From a bacterium (GTDB lineage Bacteria > Bacteroidota > Ignavibacteria > Kapaibacteriales > UBA7675): DNA of 64,000 bases. Shown here in pieces: positions 1 through 48,263 of this stretch. The first letter of the stretch is position 1. Each line of letters opens with the position of its first letter. The notes below the pieces were generated by a model. That model had not been told where the DNA came from. It did not search any database and saw only the letters and a list, made by a program, of their open reading frames with translations. The stretch spans positions 6,250-70,249 of the forward strand of contig JAUIKM010000009.1 in NCBI GenBank assembly GCA_030430495.1, in the 5' to 3' direction. The translations under genes and the position numbers were made by a program.

Positions 1-2017
1 CGTCGGCCGATACAAAGCAGGCGCCTTCATTAAACTCGTGCCCCTGCAGACCGTCATTGATATCAAAACTGCGAAAATGAGCACGCCGTTCACCGCCATC
101 GATCGCCTCATCATAGGTCAGCCGCGACAGCCCCTGATCGGCGCTGATCCAGTACGCGCCGGCAGAGTCGGCACAAATTGCGTACACGCGGTTGTTCACC
201 AGTCCATCCGCAACCGTAAATCGTTCAAATTGCGCCGAAACGCCGGCAACGCCGCCCGCATTGCGCAGACAGTTAACGCCGCCCCGATCAGTCCCGATCC
301 AGAGTGCCCCGGCGGCATCCACAAACATGTGGTTGATTGAGTTACTGCTCAAGCCGCGCGGATTATCCGGCTCCTGACGAAAGTTGACAAAGCGCTCGGT
401 TTCTGGCTGAAACAGGCTGACGCCGCCGTCGAGCGTGCCGACCCACAATCTTCCGGCGCTGTCGACGACCATCGCGGAAACAAAGTTGTTAACCAGTGAA
501 TTTTCATCGCCCGGCCGATTGAGAAATCGCCTGAACGTTTTGGACACCGGGTCAAACAGATTAAACCCTCCGCCGGAAGTACCGACCCAGAGCTTGCCGT
601 CAGCCCGTTCGATTACAGCGCGGACATCATTGTGGCTGATGCTCGTACTGTCGTCCGGCTTGTGTTTAAACTGCGAAAAATTATTGGTCGACGGGTCGAA
701 GATCATCAATCCTCCGCCGACGGAGCCCACCCACAGCTTGCCATCTTGGCGTGGACGTATCACGCGAATATCAGTATCATATGCGGAAAGATTTGAGTTT
801 TCAAACGAGACGCTGCCGCTGTAGGTCCACTCACCGCGTTGAAGTTTAAATCGGTTCAGACCGCTCCAGGCGCCGACCCACAGCGTCGTCTTGTCCGCCT
901 GCGCAATCGCGTGCACCTCATTGCGGTTAATACCTACCTGCCCCGTACCGCGCGCCCGGTAGTGCGCAAATTTCTGTTTAAGTTTATCGTATACATTCAG
1001 CCCGCCCCAGGTGCCCACCCACATGATGTCGGACGCTCCGCGGCAGATCGAACTGACGAGATCATCACTTAAACTCTGACGCTCCTCGGGGTCATTGTCA
1101 TACAGCCTGAACTCGGATGCTCCGCGATTGAGTATGGAAACGCCGCCGCCCCAGGTGCCAATCCACAAGCTGCCTTCAGCATCGTTTACAATGCTGCGAA
1201 TGTAGTCGTTCGACAGCGAGTTGGGCTTTTCCGGACGGTGGATAAAACGTCGCGAGTTTCCGTTGACGCGATCCAGCAGGAACACGCCGGCGCCCCAGGT
1301 CCCGACCCACAGCGAGTCGCCGACGGCATGGAGTGCGGAAATATCGTTAAGATGTGCAACGGCCTCCGCGCCTTCCATCAGTACGACCGGCTCAAAGGCG
1401 TCTGCATCCGCATTGTATCGCATCAGTCCATTTCCGCTGGTCCCCACCAGGATGTCGCCATCGACATCTTCGTACACCACCCAGACATTGTCTTCGCGTA
1501 CAACGGAATTGGAATCGGCCAACTGATAACGCGTAAACTCTTCTGTTAAACGATTCAGCCGGCACACGCCGCCGCCCCAGGTCCCGACCCACAAGTTGCC
1601 CTTGCGATCTTCACAAATTGTTCGCACGTCGTCGGAACTGATACTCGACGCGTTCCCGGCATTGTGGCGGTATGCGGTAAAACGCCCCGAACCCCGATTC
1701 AGTTTGTTTAAGCCGCCGCCCCAGGTGGCGATATACAGCACGCTGTCGCTCGTTTCATACACGGCCCACACCCGGCTGTTACTCAGGCTGGCGGGATCTT
1801 TGGGATCGTGATTAAACTCGCGAAATTCGTAGCCGTTGTACAGGTTTAATCCGTTGTTGGTCCCGATCCAGATGAACCTGCGGTTGTCCTGTACAATGCA
1901 GTTGATCTGGCTTTGGGAAATCCCCTGATCCCACGAAATTCTTTCGAACTTCACCTGGGCATGCAGCGACGCGGTCGCACATGTTAACACGGCGATTAAA
2001 CAGAGCGGCAATCTCAT
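1..2017 (-). CDS. Periplasmic sensor protein with at least 10 two-component-regulator-propeller repeats (PF07494-like). Partial: the 3' end runs off the window start.
   Basis: The ATG at 2017..2015 opens a minus-strand frame that I translated without stops down to position 1. The track does not list it because no stop falls inside the window. The translation starts MRLPLCLIAVLTCATASLHAQ (a signal peptide). It is followed by repeated W(V/I)GTWGGG(L/V) ... L(Y/F) ... D motifs: WIGTNNGL, YIATWGGGL, WVGTWGGGV, WVGTWGAGV, WIGTWGGGV, WVGTWGGL, WVGAWSGL, WVGSVGGGL, WVGTSGGG, WVGTLDGGV, WIGTDRGGV. These are the hallmark of sensor propeller repeats found in Bacteroidota hybrid two-component systems. 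Confidence 0.75.
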   Translation of the reverse strand, partial: MRLPLCLIAVLTCATASLHAQVKFERISWDQGISQSQINCIVQDNRRFIWIGTNNGLNLYNGYEFREFNHDPKDPASLSNSRVWAVYETSDSVLYIATWGGGLNKLNRGSGRFTAYRHNAGNASSISSDDVRTICEDRKGNLWVGTWGGGVCRLNRLTEEFTRYQLADSNSVVREDNVWVVYEDVDGDILVGTSGNGLMRYNADADAFEPVVLMEGAEAVAHLNDISALHAVGDSLWVGTWGAGVFLLDRVNGNSRRFIHRPEKPNSLSNDYIRSIVNDAEGSLWIGTWGGGVSILNRGASEFRLYDNDPEERQSLSDDLVSSICRGASDIMWVGTWGGLNVYDKLKQKFAHYRARGTGQVGINRNEVHAIAQADKTTLWVGAWSGLNRFKLQRGEWTYSGSVSFENSNLSAYDTDIRVIRPRQDGKLWVGSVGGGLMIFDPSTNNFSQFKHKPDDSTSISHNDVRAVIERADGKLWVGTSGGGFNLFDPVSKTFRRFLNRPGDENSLVNNFVSAMVVDSAGRLWVGTLDGGVSLFQPETERFVNFRQEPDNPRGLSSNSINHMFVDAAGALWIGTDRGGVNCLRNAGGVAGVSAQFERFTVADGLVNNRVYAICADSAGAYWISADQGLSRLTYDEAIDGGERRAHFRSFDINDGLQGHEFNEGACFVSAD

Positions 2018-2314
2018 CAAACGGCTGACCGCAATTGATCGCGGGGTCGGCATAATCCTGTTCCCTCTTGGTTCGGTGTAGCAGGCCGCGGAACGGCCGG
2101 TGGAAAATACGACAATCCCGATAGCCGCCCAACAGCCCGACACTCGGCAGGGCGGGACGATCCCCGGCGGACGCTCTTCCGGTCGCCTTGCTCTCTGAAA
2201 CCTCTGCCTGATTTTCTTGTTTGTCAGCGTGTTTGCCGTCTCGCGTCCACATCATGTCGACCGGCGCGAAGCGGCGAATGCCCCGGCAATTCCCGTTCAT
2301 CGCTCCTGAACCGC

Positions 2315-2557
2315 CGTTCAACCAGATTTTCCCCACCGCTCAGTTTTTTCGCCATGGATTTCAGGCCAACAGACCTTAGAATGGACAGAAAGCGGGCAGG
2401 CACGTGCATTCGGCCCGCCGATAAGCAGCTGAGCGCGACGGCGCCGAGCCGCTGAATCCGGGAACCCTGGCGGGGGCGAGCGGACGGAGAGCCTGTGCAC
2501 GGAAAATTTTCAGGCGTGGTGGTGGAGGGTAACGGGTGGGCCCAAAGATTCATCGCA
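2315..2557. repeat. Copy A of a 243-bp tandemly duplicated non-coding element (candidate structured RNA or regulatory module).
   Basis: Position-by-position alignment with 2761..3003 gives about 95% identity, with equal length and the same orientation. The track ORFs 2224..2553 and 2625..3233 merely read through the two copies. Internal GC-rich stems include GCGGGCAGGCACGUGCAUUCGGCCCGC and GGGUGGGCCC. Confidence 0.7.
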
Positions 2558-2760
2558 GGAGTGCGCCCAATTCATCAGCACATTGGCTGATTGCCGACTC
2601 GGATCACTTTTTACATGGTTCTGCCTAAATGAGAGCTTGCCTCAAAGCACACAACACTCTCCCGTGAACATGGCCGCAATCTGTGCCAAGGCCGCCCGAA
2701 TCGGGAGTAGTGCCGGCAGGTGAATCAATGCCGGTCGGCCGGTCATGACAATCCAACGAC

Positions 2761-3003
2761 CGTTCAACCAGGTTTTCCCCACCGCTCAGTTTTTTCGCCA
2801 TGGATTTCAGGCCAACAGACCGTAGTATGGACTGAAAGCGGGCAGGCACGTGCATTCGGCCCGCCGATAAGCAGCTGAGCGCGACGGCGCCGAGCGGCTG
2901 AATCCGGGAACCCTGGCGGGGACGAACGGACGGAGAGCCTGTGCACGGAAAATTTTCAGGCGTGGTGGTGGAGGGTAACGGGTGGGCCCAAAGATTCATC
3001 GCA
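2761..3003. repeat. Copy B of the 243-bp element, 203 bp downstream of copy A.
   Basis: See copy A. There are about a dozen substitutions and no indels. Both copies lie between the propeller sensor gene (minus strand) and the lipoprotein gene (plus strand). Confidence 0.7.
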
Positions 3004-3698
3004 AAAATGCGCTCAAATCTTAGTCTCAAGAACTTGAATACTGCTTCTCCTGGTTTCTGAAACCTGCACAGCCTCGGGATTTGCACAATTGGCGACCTCG
3101 AGTCCCATTCGCCTGGGCGCGCGCACCTTGGGCCGCGCCTCATTCCGCCCGCTGCATGCGACTCGGTTAGTCCGCAATTGTGAGACTCGAACCCATCTTC
3201 CATTCCTCTAACCGATCGCTGCACGACGAACAAAAATGGATTGCAAAAGGCGATGTGAGCAGCGCCTGGTCTGGTAGTGGAGAATACTTGAGGCCCGGGC
3301 GATTTTTTTCACGCCGACGAGTCTCAAATCGCAGCGGAATATTGTTAATAAAAGTGCGTTCTTCGGAACGTCGTAAAATTAGAGATGGACTTAAGCGCCT
3401 GCAACATATAATGTATCAATGACCGGTTTCGATCTATGCCTGACAAACATTAACTGATAGTCGCAACAATCAAATCTCCACACCGCCCGGCCGGGCCGGA
3501 CTTAAACAACCGCGCAGTAATCTCAATAGCCCGAACTACATCTATTCGCACTGCGGCTGCTGATTGTTTTACACCGCAACCATTCGTACTTTTGTCCGTT
3601 GGCGTTTCCAATGACCCGGCAGTCTTCCGGCAAACACCAATTGAAATTTGCGCCAGAGTTCCCGGCCTGTCGGCGTGTTAAAACGCGGAGGCAAACAC

Positions 3699-4412
3699 AT
3701 GCGCTCATTCAAGTACATCCTCGTGCTGCTCGCACTTGCGGCGGGTATGCAATCCTGTCATTTCAACTACCTTGAATCAAAAAACAGCGACCGCTACGGC
3801 ATCACGGCTTACGTCGATCCGGCCTACTATTCGCAGACCTTTGACGCGATCGCGGTGTACAGCGACAGCAGCGACTTACAATGGCGGCGCATCATCGAGA
3901 CCAAAACGCTGGAGACGCTGCACAAAAACGGCGTGCGTGCATTCTCCGGTTCGCGTTTGGTTCCGCCCACGCGACAATGGACGCGCACGGAAGGCGACAG
4001 CATCCTGCGGCTGGCGGGAGTGAACGCCGTCCTCCTATTCGACGTTGAAGTCGACTCGACAACCACGGAAGTATTTGTGCCCTTAACAACCAGCTCCAAA
4101 ACACGCGAGGAAAACAAACGCACCCAAAGCAGCGCCAGGCAGGATACCACCGGTGCCAAACCGCAACGCAACAGTGAAAAAGGTGTGCGTGAGGAGTGGA
4201 CCGTTGTCGAGAAAAAAGGCGGCTACATGAAAACAGAAGTGACGCGACACTACAACATTCGCGCGCGCCTTGTTGATGTTCGCAACGGCGCCGTGGCCTG
4301 GGTTGGACACTATTCGAGCAACAATGACAACTACCTGGACGACTTCACCTGGCGCGTGGCCAATCAGCTGATGATGGATGAGCTGGTGTTCAGAAGAGTC
4401 AGGCAGGATTAA
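3699..4412 (+). CDS. Hypothetical secreted protein or lipoprotein.
   Basis: GGAGG sits 8 nt upstream of the ATG at 3699. The N-terminus is MRSFKYILVLLALAAGMQSC, a signal peptide with a Cys at the cleavage region. The track ORF is 3648..4412. No recognisable catalytic motifs. Confidence 0.5.
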   Translation: MRSFKYILVLLALAAGMQSCHFNYLESKNSDRYGITAYVDPAYYSQTFDAIAVYSDSSDLQWRRIIETKTLETLHKNGVRAFSGSRLVPPTRQWTRTEGDSILRLAGVNAVLLFDVEVDSTTTEVFVPLTTSSKTREENKRTQSSARQDTTGAKPQRNSEKGVREEWTVVEKKGGYMKTEVTRHYNIRARLVDVRNGAVAWVGHYSSNNDNYLDDFTWRVANQLMMDELVFRRVRQD

Positions 4413-8487: not shown

Positions 8488-9387
8488 GTGGTACGCAACA
8501 GTCTGGTATTTCTTCTGGCGGGAACACTTTTGTTAACCGCCGCGTGTGAAGACAACACGCGCACATCGGACGCATACGGCAACTTTGAAGCCGATGAAAT
8601 TCTTATCTCGGCCGAAACGCCCGGAAAAATTCTGCGCCTGAACGTGACGGAAGGTGAGATGCTGCAAGCCGGCGACACCGTGGCACAGATCGACACAAGC
8701 GATCTGCACCTGCAACGCCTGACGCTGGATGCGCAGCGCAATGCCGTCCGCGCGCGCTATCCGCAGTTAACGGCCCAGATCGACATCGTCAAAGCCGAGC
8801 GCGCCGTACTTGAACGCGATAAAACACGCCTGGAAGCGCTCGTGGCTGACAGCGCCGCCACACAGCAGGAGCTGGATGGAGTTAACGGCAGGCTCGACGT
8901 GCTCGAAGAACGCATCAGATCCATCCGGACGCAGCACGAACCGCTGCTCGCCGAGCTTGGCCTCATCGACGCCCAGGAGGCGCGGCTGGACGATATGTTT
9001 AACAAGTCGACCATCGTCAATCCCGTCGGCGGAACAGTATTGATTAAACACGCCGAGGAATACGAACTGGCATCGCCGGGACGGCCGCTCTATACGATCG
9101 CCGCGCTGGATGAACTCGACCTTCGGGTATTTGTCTCCGGTGCGGACCTGCCGAATGTTAAACTCGGTGAAAAAGCCGAGGTTATCGTCGACGACGGCAA
9201 TGGCTCCCTGCATACGCTGCCCGGCGTCGTAAGCTGGGTGAACGCCAAAGCCGAGTTCACGCCGACAACTGTGCAGACGCGCGAAGAACGCGTCAATCTG
9301 GTCTACGCGGTTAAGGTCCGCACGCCGAACGACGGCTCGCTGAAAATCGGCATGCCCGGCGAAGTCAACTTTGAAGCGGGACGTTAA
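8488..9387 (+). CDS. HlyD-family membrane fusion / periplasmic adaptor protein (YbhG-like).
   Basis: GTG start 2 nt after the TolC stop. Single N-terminal TM or signal segment. It has a biotinyl/lipoyl-like motif (ILISAETPGKILRLNVTEGEMLQAGDTVAQID), a coiled-coil region and a C-terminal beta-barrel (GMPGEVNFEAG). Confidence 0.8.
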   Translation: MVRNSLVFLLAGTLLLTAACEDNTRTSDAYGNFEADEILISAETPGKILRLNVTEGEMLQAGDTVAQIDTSDLHLQRLTLDAQRNAVRARYPQLTAQIDIVKAERAVLERDKTRLEALVADSAATQQELDGVNGRLDVLEERIRSIRTQHEPLLAELGLIDAQEARLDDMFNKSTIVNPVGGTVLIKHAEEYELASPGRPLYTIAALDELDLRVFVSGADLPNVKLGEKAEVIVDDGNGSLHTLPGVVSWVNAKAEFTPTTVQTREERVNLVYAVKVRTPNDGSLKIGMPGEVNFEAGR

Positions 9388-13692: not shown

Positions 13693-14655
13693 TTAATCAT
13701 ATCGGCGAAAGAGGTCAAAAGCCGTGTCCAGATCGACGTTGCCGCCGCTGATGACAATGAGAATTCTCTTGCTGCGCAATTGTTCGGCCTGTTTAAGCGC
13801 CACCGCCAGCGAGACCGCGCCCGAGGGTTCAACGATGATGTTGAGGTATTGCCACAACAGACGCATGGCGCGCACGATATCCGCGTCGTCCACCGTGTAA
13901 ATATCGTCGACATTATGCTGGATAATCGGCCAGGTGAGCTCGCCCAGTGAAGTAAGAAGTCCGTCGGCAATTGTGTCGGGTTTAACAGACGGAATGATGT
14001 GACCCGCGCGCAGTGAACGCAGTGCGTCGTCGGCCCCGGTCGGTTCCGCGCCCCAGAGTCGGGCCGTCCTGCCGTCGGCGCGCAGACTCAGCGCCGTGCC
14101 GGAAAGCAGGCCGCCGCCGCCCACCGGAGCAATGACGTGGTTAAACACGTCGTCGTCCTGCAGCGCTTCCCTCAGCGCCGTGGACTGGCCGCAGATAATG
14201 CGTTCGTCGTCGTAGGGATGCACCACGTGCGCGCCCAGGTCCTCCACCAGGCGGGCCACCCCGTCCTCGCGCGCCTGCAGCGTCGGCACGCAGTGATGAA
14301 TATTTGCACCGGCATTGCGCACACGCCGTTGTTTAACTTCCGGTGCATTGTCCGGCATGACGATGTTTGCGTCTATTCCGCGCATCTGCGCCGCCAGAGC
14401 CAGCGCCGCCGCGTGGTTGCCCGAAGAATGAGTGGTCACGCCGCGCTTGGCGGTTTCCTCGTCCAGACCAAAAACGGCATTACATGCGCCGCGAAACTTA
14501 AACGCGCCACAGTGCTGCAGGTTCTCGGGTTTAAAGCGAAGATCGAGGCCCGTGACTTTGTTTAACTCGGCGGAAAACAAAAGCGGCGTGCGCCGCACGT
14601 AAGGTGCTATGCGCTCCGCCGCTTGTTGAAGTTCGTGTTCCTGCGGGAACTGCAT
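13693..14655 (-). CDS. Threonine/serine dehydratase-like PLP enzyme (fold type II, Trp-synthase beta superfamily).
   Basis: The HSSGNHAAALA and GGGGLLSG glycine loop are typical of threonine ammonia-lyase or serine racemase. The start codon overlaps the upstream gene's stop by 1 nt (TAATG). Confidence 0.8.
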   Translation of the reverse strand: MQFPQEHELQQAAERIAPYVRRTPLLFSAELNKVTGLDLRFKPENLQHCGAFKFRGACNAVFGLDEETAKRGVTTHSSGNHAAALALAAQMRGIDANIVMPDNAPEVKQRRVRNAGANIHHCVPTLQAREDGVARLVEDLGAHVVHPYDDERIICGQSTALREALQDDDVFNHVIAPVGGGGLLSGTALSLRADGRTARLWGAEPTGADDALRSLRAGHIIPSVKPDTIADGLLTSLGELTWPIIQHNVDDIYTVDDADIVRAMRLLWQYLNIIVEPSGAVSLAVALKQAEQLRSKRILIVISGGNVDLDTAFDLFRRYD

Positions 14656-17600
14656 TACTGGTTTGCGCCGCCGGATGCCGCGTCCGCCCCGCCTTCCGGC
14701 AGACTGTCGCTCACCGGAAAACCGGCCTTGCGTTTAAGGTCCATGATCTGGAACTCAATTTGCGGAATCAGGGCGTTGAGGTACTGATGCCCGGAGTTGC
14801 GATAGGATTCGATCACCTTCTCGGCTTCCGCGATTGCCTCGCTGTACTTGCCTTCCGACTCGTATTTCTCGATGCGGAGTTGATCGATAATCCCTTGCAG
14901 GCTGGGGTCGTCGCCGCGGCCGATTGATTCGCCGTATTGCTGCCAGTAATCCATTGCGGCGTCGTAGTTGCCGAGCATTGTGCTGGCGTCTGCGGCGATC
15001 TGAGCCGGATTATAGGAGTAGGTATAGCGCTCGCGCGTATTCCAGAGTTGGCGATTTTCGGGTTGCAGCAGAAAGTCGGACGATTCCAGCGCCATCTGCG
15101 CAAAGTGCTCGGCCTGGCGCTCCGCTCCGGCGCGGCTGTAGATTTCGGCTATCTGCATTTCCGTGGCAAAAGGCATCGGGAACATCTTGCTCGAAATGTA
15201 TTTGTCGAGCGTGTCCATGACGGCAGTCGCCTTTTCCTTGTTGCCCTGATTCAGCTGCCAGGTGGCGTAGTTCAGGTAGATATTGCGATAGCTGGGAACC
15301 GGGCGCCGGTTGGATTCGTCGTAGTAGACGTCCGGATTGTTCAGGTTGCGCAGTTTCCAGCCGTAGTGCTGCTGCTTGTGATAGTCGTTGCCCGGAATGA
15401 TGTTCAGCAGCGTCTGGTCCATGATGGCTTCGTTGCAGGCAAAAAAGCCGGACTGGTTGTTTTGTGAAACCGGACAGACGCGCAGACACATTCCCTCCAG
15501 GCGGAAGAAGTCTTCCAGCCCCGCATAGGCGTCGGGACCGACGGACATGGAGTAGTACACCGGACGCTCAAAACGCGTGGTTTTGAGGATGTCCGTCACC
15601 AGCTGGTCCTGCACGCGGATCACGTATTCCTGCGGCTCACTACCGCTGCCGTAGGGATCGCCGATGAGCTGCCAGCTCATTTTACCACTGTTGATAATGG
15701 CGGGATCGTCCGTGTACTGGCGCAGGATGTCGGGCGAAACGCTGACTTCCATCGTGCGCTCGCGGTCGATGTAATATGTCAATGCGACCGGCGAGTTTTC
15801 ATCGCGCGTCTGAATCGAAGCATCGCTGAACGAGAGCGGAATCTGCTCCGCGTTCCACGGTCGTTCGTTTTTCAGCTGATCGACGTACCAGAGGGTGTTG
15901 CCGAGGCTCAGGTTGACGATGCGCACGTCGCGACGCACGCCGGCGACGTCCTGCAGGTACCAGACCGGGAAGGTGTCGTTGTCGCCGTTGGTAAAGACAA
16001 TCGCATTTTCCTCGACGCTCTGCAGAATATTATAGGCGTAGTCGAATGGCAGGTAGTTGCCGCTGCGATCGTGAATCGCCCAACCCTGCCAGGCCATGTT
16101 GGCCGGTACCGCCACAAAGGACAGGATCAGAATGACGGCCACCAAAGGCGCGTAACCCGCCTCGCGCTGACGTCGCAATTGTTCGGCGATAAAATACACG
16201 CCGAGGCCTATCCACATGGCAAAGACCATAAATGAACCGGTGTAGAAATAGTCGCGCTCGCGCGGCTGCGGATTCTGTTGGTTCTGCTGCAGCGCAGCTA
16301 TTATTCCGGTCAGCAGGAAAAGCACAAAGTACGCGATTGCCATGCGCGGATCGCGGAATGCCTGAAAGAAGAGACCCAACAGTCCAAAGAGCAGCGGCAG
16401 CGCAAAGAAGCGCGCCGGAAAGTGCTCGGCGAAGGTGCCGACGCCGTAGAGCCAATAGTCTTCATCCGCCCCGATTTTGGTCCAGGGCGCGTCCTGAATG
16501 TCGCTCACCCGGCCGATAAAGTTCCAGGCGAAGTAACGCCCGTACATGTGGCTGGCCTGGTAGTCGATCAGGTAGTTGAATTCGCCGGCTGCGTTGACCT
16601 GGTTGAAGACAGGTACCGCCAGCACCACGCCGTCTTCGCGCTCAACGCGTTCGCGATCGGGCGGATACCATTCGCCGTAGGCGTTAAAATTGCGCTGAAT
16701 ATGCGGACGCGTGTCGTAGCGACGCGGCCACATAGGCGCATCGCCGTATTGTTCGCGGCCCAGGTAGGACACCAGGCTGCTGAGGTCGTTCGGGTTGTTT
16801 TCGTTCATCGGCGGGTGGGCGTTGGCGCGCAGCAGGATGTGCGTGTAGGTGCTGTAGCCCACAAAAATCAGCACAAAACAGGAGCCGACCACCACCAGGA
16901 GGTTGCGGTTGTTGCGCCAGGACCAGAAGATGAAAACCGCCGTGAAGAGCACCAGGAAACCGGCCACGATGCGGTCCAGTTTGCCGGCGTTGATTGTCCA
17001 GTTGCCGTCGATCATGGCCGGCAGCCACTTGACGATGCCGGGGTAGACCATGCCGAAAGCCGCCACCGCCGCGACGCCCATGACCAGGAAGGACAGCAGG
17101 CCCGGCTCGTTTTTGCGGAAGTATATAATGAGTGCAATCGGGAAGATCGTCAGAACCGCCAGCAGGTGAACGCCGATTGAAAGGCCGATCAGATACGCGA
17201 TCATCAGCAGGTAGCGCTCGTTGCCGGGATTGTCCGCCTCCTCATGCCATCGCATGATCAGCCAGACAATGATCGCCACAAAGAGCGTCGAGGCCGCATA
17301 GACCTCCGACTCCACCGCGTTAAACCAGAAAGTATCTGAAAAGATAAAAGCCGCCGCGCCGATAAAAGACGAGCCGTAGACCATCAGGCCCTCGCCGAAG
17401 TCCTTCGGTTTTTCGCCGCGGAAGTTGTTGATGACTATGACGGAGATCAAATAGAGAAGCAGGACACAAAATGCGCTGGAAAGCACGGAGACCAGGTTGA
17501 TGCGCCAGCCTTCATCGCCGAAGGGCAATAAAACGTGAAACACCTTGCCGACCATCAGAAACAGCGGCGCGCCCGGCGGGTGCGGCACCTGTTGCTGGAT

Positions 17601-17726
17601 GGCCGCGGCCGAAAATTCACCGCAGTCCCAGAACGGGACCGACGGCTGCACCGTGAGCATATAGGTGACGAGCGCCAGAGCAAATACCAGGATGCCAAAA
17701 GCGCGATGGAGAGTCTTTGTATCCAT
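14655..17726 (-). CDS. DUF2723 (TMEM260-type) GT-C fold membrane glycosyltransferase-like protein with a C-terminal TPR region. Paralog 1.
   Basis: From the internal ATG at 17726 the N-terminus is MDTKTLHRAFGILVFALALVTYMLTVQPSVPFWDCGEFSAAAIQQQVPHPPGAPLF, the DUF2723 signature. There are about 11 TM helices, then a large soluble region with TPR-like repeats. The track ORF extends 25 codons further upstream. Confidence 0.8.
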   Translation of the reverse strand: MDTKTLHRAFGILVFALALVTYMLTVQPSVPFWDCGEFSAAAIQQQVPHPPGAPLFLMVGKVFHVLLPFGDEGWRINLVSVLSSAFCVLLLYLISVIVINNFRGEKPKDFGEGLMVYGSSFIGAAAFIFSDTFWFNAVESEVYAASTLFVAIIVWLIMRWHEEADNPGNERYLLMIAYLIGLSIGVHLLAVLTIFPIALIIYFRKNEPGLLSFLVMGVAAVAAFGMVYPGIVKWLPAMIDGNWTINAGKLDRIVAGFLVLFTAVFIFWSWRNNRNLLVVVGSCFVLIFVGYSTYTHILLRANAHPPMNENNPNDLSSLVSYLGREQYGDAPMWPRRYDTRPHIQRNFNAYGEWYPPDRERVEREDGVVLAVPVFNQVNAAGEFNYLIDYQASHMYGRYFAWNFIGRVSDIQDAPWTKIGADEDYWLYGVGTFAEHFPARFFALPLLFGLLGLFFQAFRDPRMAIAYFVLFLLTGIIAALQQNQQNPQPRERDYFYTGSFMVFAMWIGLGVYFIAEQLRRQREAGYAPLVAVILILSFVAVPANMAWQGWAIHDRSGNYLPFDYAYNILQSVEENAIVFTNGDNDTFPVWYLQDVAGVRRDVRIVNLSLGNTLWYVDQLKNERPWNAEQIPLSFSDASIQTRDENSPVALTYYIDRERTMEVSVSPDILRQYTDDPAIINSGKMSWQLIGDPYGSGSEPQEYVIRVQDQLVTDILKTTRFERPVYYSMSVGPDAYAGLEDFFRLEGMCLRVCPVSQNNQSGFFACNEAIMDQTLLNIIPGNDYHKQQHYGWKLRNLNNPDVYYDESNRRPVPSYRNIYLNYATWQLNQGNKEKATAVMDTLDKYISSKMFPMPFATEMQIAEIYSRAGAERQAEHFAQMALESSDFLLQPENRQLWNTRERYTYSYNPAQIAADASTMLGNYDAAMDYWQQYGESIGRGDDPSLQGIIDQLRIEKYESEGKYSEAIAEAEKVIESYRNSGHQYLNALIPQIEFQIMDLKRKAGFPVSDSLPEGGADAASGGANQ

Positions 17727-17839
17727 ACGGTTGCCGATGTCCGATTGAAATTGTTGGCCGTCGGAGAAATGCGCTGCGCGCGTCCGGCCTGTGACACACA
17801 AATCCGTAATTTACCGCTTTGAGCGCAGACTGCAAGGTC

Positions 17840-22421: not shown

Positions 22422-25400
22422 TCAGGCGTCGGGAAGTGACAAACCAGCCGCCGAGTCTCCCGGCGCCCCGGCTTTGAACTGGAGCTGCCGCATATGCTGC
22501 TCCAACTGCGGAATAATGCCGTTCAGGTATGCCGAACCCGAAGCGCGGTACTCAGTGATAATCTTCTGAATTTCCGCGATGGCCGCTACCACATCGCCCT
22601 CCGCCGTGTGGCGCTCGATGCGCAGCTGATCGATGACCGCTCGCAGGCCGGGGTCGTCGGCCCGGCCGATTGAAGCGCCGTAATCGCGCCAGTACTGCAT
22701 CGCTTCGTCGTAGCGACCGAGTATGGTCACCGCCTCGGCGGCAATCTGCATCGGGTTGTACGAATACGTGTACAGTTCGCGCGTGCCCCACAGATCCCGG
22801 TTGTTTAACAGATGTTCCGAGGACTTCAGTGCCATCTCCGCGAATTCGCGCGCACGCTCCGTTGCTCCCGCGCGCAGGTACATGTCGGCTGTTTGCAGCT
22901 CGACGGCAAAAGGCATCGGGAACATCTCCGTAGAAATGTAGTCGTTCATTGTGTTGAGCACCTGCTGCGCCTTGTCGTTTTTGCCGCGAGCAATCAACCA
23001 GTTGGCGTAGTTCATGTAGATATTGCGATAGCTCGGAATCGGACGACGGTTGGACTCATCGTAGTAAACATCCGGGTTGTTTAAGTTGCGCAGCTTCCAG
23101 CCGGGATGCGGTTCGGTGAAGAACTCATCACCCTCAACGATATTCATGATTGTCCGGTCCATCATCTCTTCACTACAGGCGTACAGATCGCCGCGATTGT
23201 GCTGCGGTACCGGACAAACGCGCATAGCCATGCCCTCCATCCTGAAGTGATCCTGCAAACCTGCGTAGGCGTCTGGACCGACAGACAGGGAGAAGTACAC
23301 GGGCCGCTCAAATCGAATAACTTCGATTATTTCGCGGATCAACTGATCCTGAACACGGAACACGTACTCGCCTTCACCGTGATTAAACTCCTCACCCTCA
23401 AAGAGCCAGCTCATCTTCGGCGTCTGCAACAAGGCCGGGTCGTCCGTGTATTGCGCCATGATTTCGCGGCGCACCGGCACTTCAACCTGACGGGCCTTGT
23501 CGATGTAGTACGACAGCGCCTCGCGGGCGTTGGGATCGTCAACCTGGATTGACTCATCGCTGAAACGCAGTGGAATGGCCGCAGCGCCCCACGGTTCGCT
23601 GTTTTTCAGTTGATTGACGTACCAGGGGGTATTGCCGAGGCTCAGGTTAACAATGCGTACGTCGCGACGCACGCCGGCAACGTCCTGCATGTACCAGACC
23701 GGAAATGTGTCGTTGTCGCCGTTGGTAAACACAATCGCATTTTCGTCAACGCTCTGCAGGATATTGTAGGCGTAGTCAAAGGGCATGTAGTTGCCGCTGC
23801 GATCGTGCACTTTCCACCCCTGGATGGCCATGCTCGCCGGCGCGGCGACAAAACTCACCAGCAGGACGCAGGCCACAATCGGCAGGGCCATGCGTTTATT
23901 GATGCTGCGTGCGCGTTCCGCCAGATAATAAACGCCGATTCCGATCCACATGGCAAAGATCATGAATGAACCGGTGTAAAAGTAATCGCGCTCGCGCGGC
24001 TGCGGATTCTGTTGGTTCTGCTGCAAGGCAACGATTATCCCCGCCAGAATAAACAGAATGAAAAATGACGCGGCGGCTTTTGGATCGCGCCGTGCATGAT
24101 AAAACAAACCGAGCAGGCCCAACAGAAAAGGCAAAGCAAAAAAGTTAATCGGAAAATAGTCCGCGAACAGTCCGACGCGATAATTCCAATAGTCCACATC
24201 TGCGCCCGGATGCACCCAGGGAGAATCCTGTATGTCGCCGACGCGCCCGATAAAATTCCAGGCAAAATAGCGCCAGTACATGTGGTCGGCCTGGTAGCTG
24301 AGCAGGTAGTTCAACTCCGCCCGGGTATTGATGTCGCTGTTCTCGTAGTCGACCACGCTCAACGCCATACCGTCGCGACGAACAACGCGTTTGCGCGCCG
24401 GCGGCTGCCATTCGCCATAGGCGTCAAAGTTGCGCTGAATCTGCTTGCGCGTATCGTGGCGACGCGGCCAGAAAGGAGCCTGGGGATATTGTTCGCGCCC
24501 CAGATAGTCCGCCAGGCCGCTGAGGTCGCCGGGATTGTTTTCATTCATCGGCGGATTGGCATTTGCGCGCAGCAGAATGTGACCGTACGTGCTGTAGCCG
24601 AGAACCGTCAGAATAAAACAGGCGCTGACGAGCGTCAACAGCCCCGACCGGCGACGGTATGCCCAGATAAACAGCACCAACGCAGCGCTTAATATTGAAT
24701 ATGCCAGGAGCCGCAACAGGGAGCTGTCCACCGCCATCCACTCGTTCGCTTCCGTCTTGAACGGCGCGTGACCGTCCATCATGCCCGGCAGCCACTTGAC
24801 CATACCGGGATAAATCACAAAAAAGACGGCTACAGCTATTGCGCCCATTGTGATAAATGTTAACGGTTTGAATTCGTACTTGCGGAAGTACACGATCATC
24901 GCAATCGGAAATATCGTCAGCAGAGCCAACAGGTGAACGCCGATCGACAATCCAAGCAGATAGGCAATGAGGAGCAAATAGCGCTCGTGCCCCGCCTCGT
25001 CGGCAGCTTGATGCCAGCGTAAAATCAGCCAGACAGTCAGCGCGACGAACAAAGTCGAAGCGGCATAAACCTCCGATTCCACTGCGTTGAACCAAAAAGT
25101 ATCGCTGAATGTCAACGAACATGCGCCGACAAACCCCGCGCCGTACACCGAGAGCGCCTCCGTGAATTCGCGCGGCCGGCCGCCGCGGAAATTGTCAATC
25201 ACCAGGACAATTATCAGGTACAACAGCAGCGCTATCACCGCACTTGCACAGACGGAAACGAGATTAACACGCCAGGCCGACTCGCCGAAGGGGATCAGCA
25301 AATCAAATGTTTTACCGACCATCAGAAAAAGCGGCGCGCCCGGCGGATGCGGCACCTGCTGCTGTACGGCCGCCGCGGTAAATTCCCCGCAATCCCAGAA

Positions 25401-25493
25401 CGGAACAGTATCCTGTACCGTCAGCAGGTAGGTGCAGAACGCCAGGATAAAGGTCAGAAATGCAAAAGATCGATGCAGTAATTTTACGTTCAT
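22422..25493 (-). CDS. DUF2723 (TMEM260-type) GT-C membrane glycosyltransferase-like protein with a C-terminal TPR region. Paralog 2.
   Basis: N-terminus MNVKLLHRSFAFLTFILAFCTYLLTVQDTVPFWDCGEFTAAAVQQQVPHPPGAPLF. Collinear with the 14655..17726 paralog along the whole length, with the same TM block and the same soluble repeats. Confidence 0.8.
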   Translation of the reverse strand: MNVKLLHRSFAFLTFILAFCTYLLTVQDTVPFWDCGEFTAAAVQQQVPHPPGAPLFLMVGKTFDLLIPFGESAWRVNLVSVCASAVIALLLYLIIVLVIDNFRGGRPREFTEALSVYGAGFVGACSLTFSDTFWFNAVESEVYAASTLFVALTVWLILRWHQAADEAGHERYLLLIAYLLGLSIGVHLLALLTIFPIAMIVYFRKYEFKPLTFITMGAIAVAVFFVIYPGMVKWLPGMMDGHAPFKTEANEWMAVDSSLLRLLAYSILSAALVLFIWAYRRRSGLLTLVSACFILTVLGYSTYGHILLRANANPPMNENNPGDLSGLADYLGREQYPQAPFWPRRHDTRKQIQRNFDAYGEWQPPARKRVVRRDGMALSVVDYENSDINTRAELNYLLSYQADHMYWRYFAWNFIGRVGDIQDSPWVHPGADVDYWNYRVGLFADYFPINFFALPFLLGLLGLFYHARRDPKAAASFFILFILAGIIVALQQNQQNPQPRERDYFYTGSFMIFAMWIGIGVYYLAERARSINKRMALPIVACVLLVSFVAAPASMAIQGWKVHDRSGNYMPFDYAYNILQSVDENAIVFTNGDNDTFPVWYMQDVAGVRRDVRIVNLSLGNTPWYVNQLKNSEPWGAAAIPLRFSDESIQVDDPNAREALSYYIDKARQVEVPVRREIMAQYTDDPALLQTPKMSWLFEGEEFNHGEGEYVFRVQDQLIREIIEVIRFERPVYFSLSVGPDAYAGLQDHFRMEGMAMRVCPVPQHNRGDLYACSEEMMDRTIMNIVEGDEFFTEPHPGWKLRNLNNPDVYYDESNRRPIPSYRNIYMNYANWLIARGKNDKAQQVLNTMNDYISTEMFPMPFAVELQTADMYLRAGATERAREFAEMALKSSEHLLNNRDLWGTRELYTYSYNPMQIAAEAVTILGRYDEAMQYWRDYGASIGRADDPGLRAVIDQLRIERHTAEGDVVAAIAEIQKIITEYRASGSAYLNGIIPQLEQHMRQLQFKAGAPGDSAAGLSLPDA

Positions 25494-28758: not shown

Positions 28759-30561
28759 TTAATCGTTGATGCGCAGGACGGCCAGGAATGCTTCCTGCGG
28801 CACCTCCACGCTGCCGATCTGTTTCATCTTGCGTTTGCCGGCTTTCTGTTTTTCGAGCAGCTTGCGCTTGCGCGAAATATCACCGCCGTAGCACTTGGCC
28901 AGCACGTTCTTGCGCATGGCGCGGATGGTGTCGCGTGCAACAATGCGCGTTCCGATAGCCGCCTGGATGGCAACTTCAAACATCTGGCGCGGAATCAATT
29001 CTTTCAGCTTGGCGCACAGTTTTTTGCCCCATTCGTGCGCCTTGGAACGGTGAATGATGCACGACAGAGCGTCCACCGGGTCGCCGTTGAGCAGGATGTC
29101 GAGCTTGACCAGTTCGCTGGGACGCTCTTCCAGGATCTCGTAGTCGAGCGAGGCATAACCGCGCGTCGAGGATTTGAGCCGATCAAAAAAGTCGAAAATC
29201 ACCTCGGCCAGCGGCAGGTCGAAGTTCATTTCCACGCGGTCTTCGCTCAGGTAATTTGTACTCACCGGCGCGCCGCGGCGCTCCAGGCACAGTTTCATCA
29301 CCGCGCCGATGTACTCCGACGGACAGATGATCTGCGCGCGGATGATCGGCTCTTCAATGCGGTTGATCACGCCCGGCGAGGGCAGGTCGACCGGGTTGTC
29401 GACTTTCAGCACTTCGCCGTTGGTGCGGTAGACCGTATATGCCACGTTGGGCACCGTCGTCACAATTGTCATCTTGAACTCGCGTTCCAGACGCTCCTGC
29501 ACGATCTCCATGTGCAGCAGTCCAAGGAAGCCGCAGCGGAAACCGAAGCCGAGCGCCGAACTGGACTCGGGCTCAAAGGTAATCGCCGAGTCGTTCATCG
29601 CCAGTTTGGACAGCGCCTCGCGCAGATTCTCAAAGTCCTCGCTGTCCTGCGGGTAAATCCCGCTGAAGACCATCGGCTTGACTTCCTTGAATCCCGCTAT
29701 CGCATTCTCGACGCCGTTCTTAACCGTTGTGATCGTGTCGCCGACCTTGGTATCGTGCAGGTTTTTGATGGCGGCGGTCATGTAGCCGACCTCGCCCGCA
29801 CGCAGTTCACTCTGCGGCACGCGCCCCATGCGCATGATGCCGACTTCTTCCACTTCGTATTGCGGCTGTGTGGCAAAAAAACGGATTTTCTGGCCTTTTT
29901 TTATCACGCCGTCTATCACGCGAATGTTAACAACCACGCCGCGGTAGGGATCAAACACGGAATCGTAAATCAGCGCCCGCAGCGGCGCTTCGGGGTCGCC
30001 CGTCGGCGGCGGAACCTTTTCAACAATCGCTTCAAGGATGTCTTCCGTGCCGATGCCCTCTTTGGCCGATGCCAGGATCATGTCCTCATCTTCGCAACCG
30101 ATTAACTCGCGCACCTGTTTCTGCACGTTTTCCAGCGTGGTCGCCGCACTCGGCAAGTCAATTTTGTTAACAACCGGAATGATCTCCAGTCCGGCGTCAA
30201 TCGCCAGATAGAGATTGGAAATTGTCTGCGCTTCCACGCCCTGGGTTGCGTCTACAATTAACAACGCACCTTCGCAGGCCGCCAGCGAACGCGACACCTC
30301 GTAGGAAAAGTCCACGTGCCCCGGCGTGTCGATCAGGTTCAGGACGTACTCTTCCCCGTCTTTGGCTTTGTAGCGCATCTGAATGGCATGCAGTTTGATC
30401 GTGATGCCGCGCTCCTGCTCCAACGGATTGTCGTCCAGGACCTGCTTGGTTTTAAACGCTTTGGCGTTCAGCGTTTTGGTAAATTCGAGCAGCCGATCCG
30501 CCAGCGTCGATTTGCCGTGGTCGATATGCGCGATAATGCAGAAATTGCGAATCTTCTTCAT
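28759..30561 (-). CDS. lepA: Translation elongation factor 4 (LepA).
   Basis: [25 protein letters not shown] is the G1 motif. DTPGHVDF and NKIDL are present. The protein is LepA-like along its whole length. The internal Met at 30561 matches the canonical LepA N-terminus. The track ORF adds 12 codons. Confidence 0.9.
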
Positions 30562-30638
30562 CAAGTATTGCCTTGTCCCAATCGGGTCACGCCGCATCTC
30601 CGTCCGTTTAATCCGGTGCGGTCGTACATTGTCTGTGT

Positions 30639-38376: not shown

Positions 38377-39363
38377 TCAGACAGGATCCGCACTTACTTC
38401 CGTCCAGATACCCATTGCGCTGAACTTGTTCAATCGTTGTTCCAACAAGTCAGTGGTGTCGAACTTAAGCAGGCCGCGAAGTTCATCAGTCAAAATACGC
38501 TGCATCGTTGCAAACATTGCGCCGTGGTCGGCATGAGCTCCGCCAATAGGTTCGGGAACGATGCGATCTATTATTCCGAACTTTTGCAGATCCGGCGCCG
38601 TCAGTTTAAGTGCTTCAGCCGCCTGCTCTTTGTATTCCCAGCTGCGCCACAAAATGCTGGAGCAGGACTCGGGCGCAATCACCGAATACCAGGCGTTTTC
38701 CAACATCAGAACCCTGTCCCCGATTCCAATGCCCAGCGCGCCGCCGGAGGCGCCCTCGCCGATAATTGTTATGATAATCGGCACGCTCAACCGCGCCATT
38801 AAACGCAAATTGCGGGCGATTGCCTCTGCCTGTCCGCGTTCCTCGGCTTCCATGCCCGGATACGCGCCCGGAGTGTCAATCAGGCAAACAACAGGTTTGT
38901 TGAATTTTTGCGCCAACTCAAACAGTCGGTGCGCCTTGCGGTATCCCTCGGGATTCGGCATGCCGAAATTGCGCATCAGGTTCGATTTGGTATCGCGCCC
39001 CTTTTGATGCCCCACCACTACGACGCCGCGGCCGTCCAGCCGGGCCAGACCGCCCACAATCGCAGGATCGTCACGGAACGAGCGGTCGCCGTGCAACTCA
39101 ACAAAATCGGTAAAAATGTTTTCGATGTAATCAAGCGTCTGCGGACGCTGCGGGTGGCGCGCTATCTGGACGCGCTGCCAACGGGTAAGTTTGGAATACA
39201 CTTCCTCACGCAGGCGCCTGACTTTGCTTTCGAGTTTGTCTATCTCGAGATTGATCTCCATGGAATCGGCCATCGCCCGCATCTCGTCGACCTTGGCTTC
39301 CAGGTCGATGATCGGTTTTTCAAATTCGAGAATGGGGCTGATATTTTTTTTACCCGACGCCAC
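38377..39363 (-). CDS. accA: Acetyl-CoA carboxylase carboxyltransferase alpha subunit.
   Basis: [41 protein letters not shown]. Full-length AccA. Confidence 0.9.
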
Positions 39364-41329
39364 TGTTTCTACGGAAAAAATATTTTACAAAAATTTCAAA
39401 ATCCAGCGCCAGTGAGTAATGGCGCAAATAATAGTCATTTAAACTGCGTAAAGCCTGGATGGATATCTTTTCGGCTTTGTTGATGTGAGCCAGGCCCGTT
39501 AATCCGATTTTGCCGATTTTTGACTCTGAATCGCCTTCCAGGGGATAAATGCCGAATAGGCTGTAGTCACCTTTGAGGACCAGTACCAGCTTGTGCCTCG
39601 CGACCTTTGGATCAGCAGACGCCAAATATACGATAGGCAACCCAATTGTCAAAAGAAAAAGCGAGCCGCAAATGTCGATCAAACGCTTGGCCAGACGATT
39701 ACCCGGACGCGTAATTTTATACTGCGCCGCCGCCGGCGCCACGCCGGTCAGACTCTCGATTATTCGCGAGGTTATAACTTCGTCGTAACTGTGCGCAAAA
39801 CGCCAGTGGCGCGCATGCCCCGCCAGCTCCGTCATGTTCCGCAGCATCTCCGTGCGCGAAAGCTCGCCGTCCGTCACGATCAACTCGTCGATTCCGTGGT
39901 CGCGCACGATTTTGTTCAGGTAGCTGATGTTCCCGAGCACCGGGTCCGCCCAGGACGGCAGCGCTGCGCCCGGCTGTGTGTTGACGAAACCCACCAGGTC
40001 CGTGTTGCGCGCCTCGGCCGTCTGCAGGTCCGTCATCAACTGGCGCGAGACGTCGTTCACGCCCACAATCGCGATGCGCTTGTCCGCGTCGCGCCCCAGC
40101 AATTTCTCAAAAACGGAAATCGCCAGGCGCAGCGCGCCAAGACCAACAAAACTCAGCCCCAGGAACATCAGGAGCACGCCGCGGGAAATGGCGTAGTCTT
40201 CCACGAAGTACGGCACCGTCGAGAGCAGGAAAAACGAAATCATCAGCGCCGTCACCAGATTCCGGATCGACGAGCGTTGGTATATCGAGTACTCGCCCGC
40301 ATACAACAGCGAGACAAGCAAAAAACCGGCCGGAATCAACGGAATCTCCGGGTAGGCATAGGCCGGAAAACCCAGGAACGAACCAGTGCGAATCTTGATC
40401 CCCATCATCAGCGCCGCATTCGCCAGCGCAAAGTCCGCCAGCGCCAGACCCCACTGCGCCCGGTACTGCCAGATGTAGGCGATAAATGAACGCACCGTGA
40501 TGCCCAGTCGCAAAAACAACAGGAAAAGTTTGCTCGCCCCGAAGTGTTTGTTAACAAACACCTCCATCGCCCGGTAAAATTCGCGTACCTCGTTCAGCGA
40601 GGAACGCCGCGTGCTCTCGCCCTTGAAGTGAATGACGGAGGTCGAATGCACGTAGACAATCTGCCAGCCGGCGCGCCCCACGCGATAACACAGGTCCAGA
40701 TCCTCGCCGTACATGTAGTAGTCCGGGTCGAATCCGCCCGTCTGCTCCAGCGCCTCGCGCCGCATAAACATGAATGCTCCCGCCACCGCATCCACCGGAT
40801 AGGTCTCGTTCACATCGCGAAAAGTCTGGTTGTACTGTCCAAAAAGCCTGGAGTTGGGAAAGAGTGATTGCAGGCCGAAAATTTTGGTGAATGACACCCA
40901 GGGCGTCGGAAAGCCGCGGCGGCAGGGCAGCTGGAAACTGCCGTCGTGGTTGAGCAGCTTGCAGCCGCTCAGGCCCACCTGCGGATGGCGGCGCATGTAG
41001 TCCACCATGTGGTCCATCGTGTCTTCGCTCACCAGCGTGTCGGGATTCAGACACAACACAAACGCGCCGCGGCAGCGCTCAAAACCAATATTGTTGGCCT
41101 TGCCGAACCCCAGGTTCTCCGTCTGCCGGATGAACTCCACCTCCGGAAAGAGCGGCGCAAGGTAATCCACGGAGCCGTCCTGAGAGTTGTTGTCCACGAC
41201 GATGACCTGTCCTTCCAACGTGGCAAATGCATCGCGCAGCGACTGCAGGCAGTTGTACAGGAAGTCCTTGACGTTGTAGTTGACAATTACAACGCTGACG
41301 TCGGGCTGTTTGGCTTCACGTGAAATCAA
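39350..41329 (-). CDS. Fusion protein: N-terminal GT2 glycosyltransferase plus a WbaP-like multi-TM/Rossmann linker region and a C-terminal sugar-transferase-like domain.
   Basis: N-terminus [14 protein letters not shown]...[10 protein letters not shown]...[11 protein letters not shown] (GT2 DxD and QxxRW-type region). The middle has 4-5 TM helices and [15 protein letters not shown]...ELIVTDG (WbaP-like). The C-terminal approximately 120 aa is divergent and has no clean PGITG motif. The 3' end overlaps accA by 14 nt. Confidence 0.6.
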
Positions 41330-41544
41330 TCTGCGGCAACCTCTCGTTTAACAAAGGCGCTTCTGCGCGGCGCCGCTAATTTACGAACGAAATCTCTCAC
41401 CGCACGCCTGCGGCACGCCTCGCTGCGCTCCATCGTTCCCACCGACCGCCAATTGCGGATCCGCTTAGCCGAAAAATAGCTAGATTGCAATTCTACGTGG
41501 CTGCTTGTGAACCTTGGAATGTTGTTGTCTTCCAGCCCCCGCGC

Positions 41545-43466: not shown

Positions 43467-43588
43467 TGCGGCAGGAATCCCGGTATTTTTTTCACCCTTT
43501 GCAGGCGCGCAAACTTACGTAAATTGCCCCTGACGGCAAATCCTGCACGCCGGGTGCAAGACCCGTGAGCACTCTCCGATAGAGCACT

Positions 43589-44713: not shown

Positions 44714-44757
44714 TTTCCGCGGCAAGCAGATATTCTCACGATTCTTTGCCTCCGAAC

Positions 44758-44795
44758 GCTGCGGCGCAGCGGCGCAGCGGCGCAGCGGCGCAGCG
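44758..44795. repeat. Octanucleotide tandem repeat (GCGCAGCG) x about 4.5 in the 5' region of the downstream membrane glycosyltransferase gene.
   Basis: GCTGCGGCGCAGCGGCGCAGCGGCGCAGCGGCGCAGCGG, read directly, 30-70 bp upstream of the ATG at 44827. Confidence 0.8.
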
Positions 44796-44826
44796 GTTTT
44801 GGCCAGGCATTAAACACGTACTCACT

Positions 44827-46161: not shown

Positions 46162-46171
46162 CATGACCTTC

Positions 46172-46218
46172 TTGTTTGTCGCGCAGCTGAAAGTGTTAAA
46201 CACAGCGACAAACAAAAG
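46172..46218. repeat. Hairpin of the TTGTTTGTC/GACAAACAA family: 11-bp stem, 22-nt loop.
   Basis: CTTGTTTGTCGC-gcagctgaaagtgttaaacaca-GCGACAAACAAG. It lies 11 bp after the stop of the 44827..46161 gene, so it is possibly a terminator. Confidence 0.55.
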
Positions 46219-48070: not shown

Positions 48071-48263
48071 TGAATTTTCCGCCCAGCTGTGAACCCGACG
48101 CCGGAGCCGACGGGCGCAACAATCGATCCCGCAATTTACGAGGAATTGGCGGCATGGCCTGCGACGGCCTGCTCCGCTCCGCCCAATTTTGCTAGTTTTG
48201 CCGTCGATTGCGAGCAACAAACACAGGAATCGCGGCGCATCCGGGCGCCGCGGCGACACGGCC

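Follow-up and report, generated by a model that had tools for sequence, protein, structure and literature searches.

The window analyzed here is a 64-kb stretch of contig JAUIKM010000009.1 from a bacterium of the order Kapaibacteriales. In the intergenic region between a gene for a propeller-type sensor kinase and a gene for a lipoprotein, the window carries two tandem and nearly identical copies of a 265-nt unit. Comparison with two sister species indicates that the unit is a constrained, functional non-coding element that is specific to this lineage. It also indicates that the unit is ancestral, single-copy and syntenic since the common ancestor of the three species, and that the second copy is specific to the lineage of the window. 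We propose, as a tentative reading that is possible rather than probable, that the unit encodes a trans-acting small RNA (sRNA) of about 155 nt on the minus strand. Because only three lineages are at hand, a sample too thin for structural or functional proof, the unit stays a candidate, which we describe as an unclassified, lineage-restricted candidate sRNA or regulatory element outside any described family.

Two copies of a conserved intergenic unit

A repeat search and BLASTN revealed one pair of direct repeats in the window, at 2309-2573 and 2755-3019. The two copies are 265 nt each, lie 446 nt apart from start to start, and differ at 14 positions (94.7% identity) with 0 indels. The BLASTN E value of 9e-119 rules out a chance origin of the repeat. 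The initial annotation of this stretch, made from the letters alone, had described two tandem, collinear copies free of indels, and both searches agree with that description, except that the full extent of a copy is 265 nt and not 243 nt. It had also counted about 12 substitutions within its own boundaries (2315-2557 and 2761-3003), where the actual count is 7 (97.1% identity). The spacer between the full repeats is 181 nt long (2574-2754); the 203 bp given initially is correct when measured from those narrower boundaries. The spacer is indeed unique, in that it showed no similarity when compared with the two flanks, the remainder of the window and the loci of the relatives. Neither short-word BLASTN nor an nhmmer profile of the unit detected a third copy in the 64-kb window, and the profile picked up no additional copy in the loci of the relatives. 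The repeat pair and the parts of the unit discussed below are as follows (L005 and L003 denote the contigs of the two sister species).

2309-2573, minus strand (inferred transcription direction): copy 1 of the unit, a direct repeat, the copy nearer the sensor gene, orthologous to the L005 and L003 copies
2574-2754, unstranded: unique spacer, whose source was not found by comparison with the flanks, the window or the relatives
2755-3019, minus strand (predicted): copy 2, with 94.7% identity to copy 1
2337-2358 (copy 1) and 2783-2804 (copy 2), unstranded: conserved block 1, CGCTCAGTTTTTTCGCCATGGA, defined by alignment, with no role in the sRNA model
2391-2417 (copy 1) and 2837-2863 (copy 2), minus strand: conserved block 2, 27 invariant nt, with the hairpin GCGGGC...GCCCGC (2392-2418)
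2425-2464, minus strand: central hairpin, GCGC-GACG-GCGC plus an outer stem, variable between species and shortened in L003 by a 6-nt deletion
2510-2557 (copy 1) and 2956-3003 (copy 2), minus strand: conserved block 5, 43 of 48 positions invariant in three lineages

The contigs of the relatives were retrieved by exact-protein look-ups. Together, the window species and the two sister species make up three independent lineages and provide four unit sequences (copy 1, copy 2, L005 and L003). One sister species is represented by NCBI assembly GCA_964445695.1 (L005 and L008) and also by L006 and L007 from Logan, and the other by ENA ERZ27271384 (L003). Searches of protein clusters with the lipoprotein and the sensor suggest that these three are the only independent lineages known. 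The lipoprotein falls into just two 90% clusters among 5.8 billion proteins, and the sensor has a single close cluster, made up of four genomes and an unrelated 54-aa fragment, with all further matches at 38% identity or less. The fragment (P0128; L010, JGI 3300015331) shares the 90% cluster of the sensor kinase and comes from an AT-rich, plant-like contig of 979 nt; nothing in that contig resembles the window, and the grouping of the 54-aa protein with the sensor kinase thus appears spurious. The NCBI metagenome-assembled genome (MAG) GCA_964445695.1 is labelled 'uncultured Hyphomicrobiales bacterium'. Its LepA, which is 98% identical to that of the window, is most similar to proteins of Chlorobiota, Ignavibacteria and Kapabacteria, and the label looks wrong.

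Each sister species holds exactly one copy of the unit, in the same location and orientation and on contigs that run uninterrupted across it. The copy lies at 8957-9217 in L005 (81% identical) and at 8587-8839 in L003 (73% identical). Scans with patterns of the conserved blocks found no further homologue in the GTDB representative genomes (two patterns), where they returned only the L005-type relative and a 24-nt chance match, and they found nothing in JGI metagenomes and viral contigs (two patterns each). BLASTN of the whole unit against plasmids also returned nothing. One syntenic copy in both relatives and none elsewhere suggest that the unit was single-copy ancestrally.

When derived substitutions were polarized with the two relatives, 15 were common to both copies in the window, as against 3 and 4 private ones, suggesting that the duplication occurred late on the branch of the window. 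The copied segment (2309-2573) coincides with the segment that is conserved between species (2315-2572 in comparison with L003), and neither flank was copied along with it. A simple tandem duplication of a longer piece of DNA would leave a different footprint, and we have no explanation for the one seen; such a larger duplication is ruled out as the origin because the spacer has no similarity to either flank. The template and variable repeat of a diversity-generating retroelement are ruled out as well, because the differences between the copies are not specific to adenines. Directly to the right of the unit, L005 carries a 150-nt imperfect palindrome rich in TTGAG/CTCAA (9218-9368; also 8730-8880 in L006), which is absent from the window and from L003, suggesting rapid turnover on that side of the unit.

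The possibility, raised initially, that the unit is a non-autonomous repeat or a fragment of an insertion sequence did not hold. A miniature inverted-repeat transposable element, an insertion sequence fragment and a dispersed repeat are all ruled out, since only two adjacent copies exist in the window and the relatives carry a single syntenic copy on unbroken contigs. No terminal inverted repeats or target-site duplications of the unit were found, and the plasmid, viral, metagenome and GTDB searches described above gave no match that would indicate dispersal.

Across the three lineages, 170 of the 265 positions of the unit do not vary. The hairpin block (2391-2417) is the longest stretch without any change, at 27 nt (P = 0.00025 by permutation), and 43 positions are invariant in the 48-nt segment 2510-2557 (P = 0.0006). 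In a three-way alignment of the whole intergenic region, the blocks of the unit stand out as islands that are as conserved as the coding ends, and the DNA between the unit and the flanking genes drops to 30-65% identity with L003. This block-wise conservation amid variable stretches suggests that the unit is a constrained non-coding element. The initial annotation had regarded an absence of conservation in related genomes as evidence against its proposal; the unit proved to be conserved in both sister species. The two core blocks are free of the 14 differences between the copies. Seven of the 14 fall at sites that also vary between the relatives, an enrichment that is marginal (P = 0.07). In the outer stem of the central hairpin there is one double change (G.U in copy 1, U-A in L005), and the same pair is broken in copy 2.

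As first annotated, the only long open reading frames (ORFs) of the unit are minus-strand readings of the copies themselves, 109 aa at 2224-2553 and 202 aa at 2625-3233. The 91 variable columns among the four sequences fall 31/31/29 by position modulo 3 and thus have no triplet periodicity. In L003, a 1-nt indel makes the long minus-strand ORF change frame between its 5' and 3' halves, and in the best plus-strand frame the stop codons are placed differently in the window and in L005. When the 109-aa ORF was compared with 1.84 billion representative proteins, the matches were limited to the copy-2 ORF of the same organism and to a eukaryotic tandem-repeat artefact, and a Pfam search of the unit's ORF gave no match. 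The lack of substitution periodicity and the failure of L003 to keep the frame indicate that the unit is non-coding, which upholds the initial view, as does the lack of homologues.

Block 2 shares an exact identity of 24 nt with a Syntrophales MAG (L009, JAQTRB010000005.1, 3350-3373), where the identical stretch lies inside an acylphosphatase gene and encodes GQARAFG. An acylphosphatase pseudogene was considered and rejected: no frame of the unit matches PF00708, which a true acylphosphatase used as a control matches at 3e-27, and BLASTP aligns just the 7 residues that the shared 24-mer specifies. With no further DNA or protein similarity, we judged the 24-nt identity to be a coincidence.

A candidate small RNA on the minus strand

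What stands of the duplicated sRNA proposed initially is that it remains the best reading of the two copies; we infer, from sequence features, the transcription itself, its strand, the ends of the RNA, its seed and its targets. The RpoD promoter of this clade has been described as TTG-N17-23-TAnnTTTG, with the -7 box TA[ATC][ATC][AT]T in Chlorobaculum (bioRxiv 10.1101/172254). On the minus strand, block 5 contains the -7-like box AATCTTTG (2550 to 2543), which forms a near-match to this promoter together with TTG (2570 to 2568) and a 17-nt spacer. The counterpart in copy 2 lies at 3016 to 2989, and the near-match is kept in all four sequences. The -7-like box is followed by a C-rich stretch, ACCCGUUACCCnCCACCACCAC, which is nearly invariant and is unpaired in the fold of copy 1. 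At the other end lies the invariant hairpin (2392-2418), which the initial annotation had quoted as the stem GCGGGCAGGCACGUGCAUUCGGCCCGC; this stem and the second one quoted there, GGGUGGGCCC, are both present in the sequence. The hairpin has energies of -15.6, -15.6, -10.1 and -16.5 kcal/mol and is followed on the minus strand by UUUCUGU (2391 to 2385), which makes it a candidate terminator. The U-rich tail is clear in copy 1, copy 2 and L003. The transcript of the model would have the following extent.

2385-2537 (copy 1) and 2831-2983 (copy 2), minus strand: predicted transcript, a model of about 155 nt

In this model, a weak RpoD-type Bacteroidota/Chlorobi promoter (TTG-N17-AATCTTTG) would drive transcription from a start near 2537 in copy 1 and near 2983 in copy 2; an inverted repeat that looks like an operator, CGCA-N4-TGCG, may overlap this promoter. 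The unpaired and almost invariant C-rich segment would then form the 5' part of the RNA and could serve as a seed that pairs with G-rich sites in mRNAs. Two variable hairpins would follow, and the invariant 27-nt hairpin with its U-rich tail would act as the terminator. The two copies would be tandem paralogues, which could raise the dosage of the RNA or allow a read-through product that carries the spacer.

A number of observations weigh against this proposal. The promoter-like match of the unit lacks the first T of the -7 box, and neither strand of the unit contains the strict motif of the clade. A terminator scan did not flag the invariant hairpin, and the U-rich tail is weak in L005, where there is no convincing U-run. 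Block 1, one of the conserved blocks, sits downstream of the proposed terminator and hence outside the sRNA model. A seed-target scan of the C-rich segment against the 5' regions of the window performed no better than shuffled seeds. As to folding, the z-scores of the minimum free energy for both copies on both strands were +0.65, -0.51, -0.30 and -1.36 relative to dinucleotide shuffles, and the individual hairpins differ little in stability between the strands and thus show no consistent bias. Pair counts do exceed those of column shuffles, but they do so similarly on both strands, and the comparison is circular, as the structures were derived from the same four sequences.

The description of the element as structured was not confirmed by these calculations, because the folding energies equal those of shuffles and the RNAalifold covariation term is close to zero (plus strand +2.56, minus strand -1.44), the four sequences being without usable covariation. 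The slightly better term on the minus strand was counted as a hint of the strand. The structure conservation index was 0.63. A closing helix between block 1 and block 5 receives no support, since shuffled sequences give duplexes just as good (z from -0.1 to -1.8). Covariation and stability above background, which would mark a structured RNA class such as a riboswitch or ribozyme, were not found in a comparison of three independent lineages, which has low power.

No known RNA family was recognized in the unit. A search of the whole 64-kb window with Rfam 15 at gathering thresholds gave 0 matches. At a permissive E <= 10, no credible match was obtained in 2000-3750, and the best one inside the unit was to a model of a human long non-coding RNA (E = 3.2). 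At E <= 1, nothing was found in the units of the orthologous L003 and L005 loci on either strand. The window contains no tRNA or tmRNA. The failure of the initial annotation to match the element to a known family is thus borne out in an Rfam scan of both strands in three species. Readings of the blocks as sigma-70, extracytoplasmic function (ECF) or sigma-54 promoters gave no convincing match, either in a scan or on inspection of the sequence.

Flanking genes and alternative readings

The two genes on either side of the intergenic region and three promoter-like sites, P1 to P3, bear on the other readings of the unit.

1-2053 (probable start), minus strand: 5' part of the propeller (Reg_prop/Y_Y_Y) histidine kinase gene, from Pfam, a full-length 1171-aa orthologue and alignment
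2104-2132, -7 box at 2109, minus strand: P3, TTG-N20-TATTTT, before the sensor gene, with motif and spacing identical in L005 and L003
3376-3404, -7 box at 3381 to 3376, minus strand: P2, TTG-N20-TAATTT, a strict clade motif before a second sRNA-like unit
3564-3592, -7 box at 3587, plus strand: P1, TTG-N20-TACTTT, a strict clade motif before the lipoprotein gene
3699-4412, plus strand: lineage-specific lipoprotein gene without Pfam domains, with the promoter-like site P1

The positions of the flanking genes are as initially annotated, except for the start of the sensor gene, which had been placed at 2017. The roughly 120 nt upstream of that start (2018-2139) are 85-100% identical in the three species, and translation from an in-frame ATG at 2053, which has GAGGGAA 8 nt before it, yields MPTPRSIAVSRLMRLPL...; the sensor gene probably starts at 2053. 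In the relatives, the sensor kinase gene is followed by a gene for a response regulator with a SpoIIE/PP2C phosphatase domain. In the relatives, the gap between the sensor and lipoprotein genes measures 1.3-1.5 kb, as against 1.65-1.68 kb in the window. The strict motif TTG-N17-23-TA[ATC][ATC][AT]T occurs 28 times in the 64-kb window, and in just three of these occurrences the spacer is 20 nt long. All three lie in this intergenic region, where they constitute P1, P2 and P3, and all are conserved in the three species.

A second unit that combines a promoter-like site with a hairpin and U-run lies 350 nt from the repeat unit in the same orientation, which suggests that the intergenic region may host sRNA-type genes. 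This second sRNA-like unit spans 3232-3410 on the minus strand of the window, about 9530-9712 in L005 and about 9270-9455 in L003. Its hairpin (AGGCG-loop-CGCCU) and U-run, at about 3265 to 3240, lie some 105-125 nt downstream of P2 and are conserved, as is an A8/T8 run inside it (3305-3312). Within it, 3278-3345 on the minus strand gave a sub-threshold match to the Rfam family SAM_alpha (SAM-II), with 15.7 bits against a gathering threshold of 36 (E = 1.7); the helix needed for the match is not conserved in L005 or L003.

A first alternative to the sRNA, which we consider unlikely, is that the unit acts in cis as a DNA regulatory module, whose blocks, with the palindromes CCATGG, GCACGTGC and GGGCCC, would bind a protein and control the sensor operon or neighbouring promoters. 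Conservation of the exact sequence, including the 'loop' of the hairpin, with little support for RNA structure, would agree with such a module, as would a short perfect palindrome in each block and the shared boundaries of the duplicated and conserved segments, which are what one would expect of a discrete module. However, 265 bp with five blocks is large for bacterial operators, the unit is 200-460 bp away from the promoter-like site of the sensor and about 570 bp or more from that of the lipoprotein, and the response regulator encoded beside the sensor has an output domain of the SpoIIE/PP2C type and lacks a DNA-binding domain. Block 2 does have a perfect sigma-54 -24-like GGCACG, as read from the sequence, but the -12 GC dinucleotide is not at the required spacing from it. 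A sigma-54 promoter proper (GG and GC 10 nt apart, TGGCAC-N5-TTGC) was rejected, since block 2 has TTCG in place of TTGC and the -24 element of the alternative register is poor.

We give somewhat less weight still to the view that the sensor operon has a long 5' leader that includes the unit and is transcribed from the distal P2 or from the weak promoter of the unit itself, and in which the hairpin and U-tract would form an attenuator. P2, the unit and the sensor gene do run in the same direction in three species, and the hairpin with its U-rich tail is on the minus strand. The initial annotation had likewise suggested a leader or riboswitch-like element. Nonetheless, the conserved proximal promoter-like sites of the flanking genes (2109 and 3587) lie between the unit and the genes, and since both genes carry such sites of their own, a promoter or leader role of the unit for its neighbours is unlikely. 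Copy 1 ends about 200 nt upstream of the sensor's site P3, and these roughly 200 nt are poorly conserved (40-65% identity to L003); on the other side the unit ends about 680 nt before the start of the lipoprotein gene, again with poorly conserved DNA in between. In addition, a candidate terminator lies between P2 and the unit, Rfam contains no riboswitch or leader family that matches it, and the serial duplication of an attenuator makes little functional sense.

The unit could also be read as an RNA of the plus strand, with a G-rich 3' part and a U-rich 5' part and possibly a helix between block 1 and block 5 or a G-quadruplex in GGUGGUGGnGGGUAACGGGnGGG, although this seems improbable to us. 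In its favour, blocks 1 and 5 pair with each other in the plus-strand consensus fold (26 pairs, with 90-94% of cells paired), the duplex has lower energies on this strand, and the G-tracts are conserved. Against this, the duplex is within the range of shuffles, as stated above, and the covariation term on the plus strand (+2.56) is a penalty. No promoter-like site upstream of the unit and no terminator after it were found on the plus strand in any species.

We regard it as very unlikely that the unit is a relic that evolves neutrally, for example a decayed gene, or that its duplication is an artefact of assembly. The exact 24-nt match to an acylphosphatase gene speaks for a relic, but the acylphosphatase domain is matched by no frame of the unit, BLASTP finds the 7-residue word alone, and block-wise conservation is incompatible with neutral decay. 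An artefact might be suspected because the source is a MAG and because the Logan contigs are interrupted at the repeat. Those of the same organism begin at 2974, which is 30 nt before 3004, the first base where copy 2 departs from copy 1; a start at this position is the signature of a true repeat in a k=31 graph, so that the independent assembly breaks exactly where a true repeat predicts. Moreover, a unique 181-nt spacer with a diverged copy on each side cannot arise from a chimeric join, and short reads can tell the copies apart by their 14 differences. An assembly artefact is therefore unlikely. Scarcely any more credit can be given to the idea that the unit belongs to a new class of discrete and self-contained RNA modules with a gene that can be copied as a whole, although RNA-mediated or otherwise unit-specific copying would fit the coincidence of duplicated and conserved boundaries.

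Elsewhere in the window, the proteins most similar to LepA (28759-30597) bear the names Chlorobiota, Ignavibacteria and Kapabacteria, and one protein carries a sorting tail of the type IX secretion system. These two features point to an uncultured organism of the Bacteroidota/Ignavibacteria/Kapabacteria group. On the minus strand, 14655-17801 and 22422-25493 are two large paralogous genes for TMEM260-like protein O-mannosyltransferases, and several glycosyltransferase genes follow one another at 39350-48376.

Meaning and comparison with known systems

If the sRNA is confirmed, it would be the first sRNA family for an almost unsampled Kapabacteria/Ignavibacteria-like genus. It would also offer a natural case of a recent duplication of an sRNA gene, useful for studies of dosage or neofunctionalization. 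An intergenic region of about 1.2-1.7 kb beside a propeller-type sensor kinase seems to hold at least two candidate sRNA genes. Constrained elements of this kind are common in long bacterial intergenic regions, and the unit has no bearing on a long-standing open question.

The Rfam families of the Bacteroidota/Chlorobi group and the general bacterial RNAs (6S, tmRNA, RNase P, the signal recognition particle RNA and riboswitches) resemble the unit in size range and intergenic location, but the unit matches none of them at gathering thresholds.

Small RNAs with a C-rich seed, such as RsaE/RoxS in Firmicutes and RepG in Helicobacter, pair with G-rich ribosome-binding regions of mRNAs. The predicted RNA of the unit would resemble them in the conserved, unpaired, C-rich CCCnCCACCACCAC at its putative 5' end, and the organism of the window has ribosome-binding sites of the GGAGG type, for example upstream of the ATG at 3699. 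However, the CCUCC of the window reads CCGCC in both relatives, no target of the C-rich segment rises above background, there is no homology to these RNAs, and the C-rich motif of the unit lies outside hairpin loops.

The closest functional analogue of the unit pair would be tandem sRNA paralogues such as PrrF1 and PrrF2. In Pseudomonas aeruginosa, these are tandem paralogues of about 115 nt (PMC2851614; Wilderman et al. 2004, cited there), and other pseudomonads have two unlinked PrrF copies (PMC2851614). The unit differs from PrrF in that it has no sequence or Rfam relationship to it, is longer (265 nt, with a predicted RNA of about 155 nt, compared with about 115 nt), has no Fur box or known regulator, and is single-copy in its relatives, whereas the other pseudomonads have two unlinked copies. 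The arrangement is nevertheless alike. In both cases, a single intergenic region holds two near-identical non-coding units in head-to-tail order, their tandem placement is restricted to one lineage, each copy has its own upstream promoter-like sequence and hairpin, and the copies are separated by a unique spacer that could enter a read-through product, as in PrrH.

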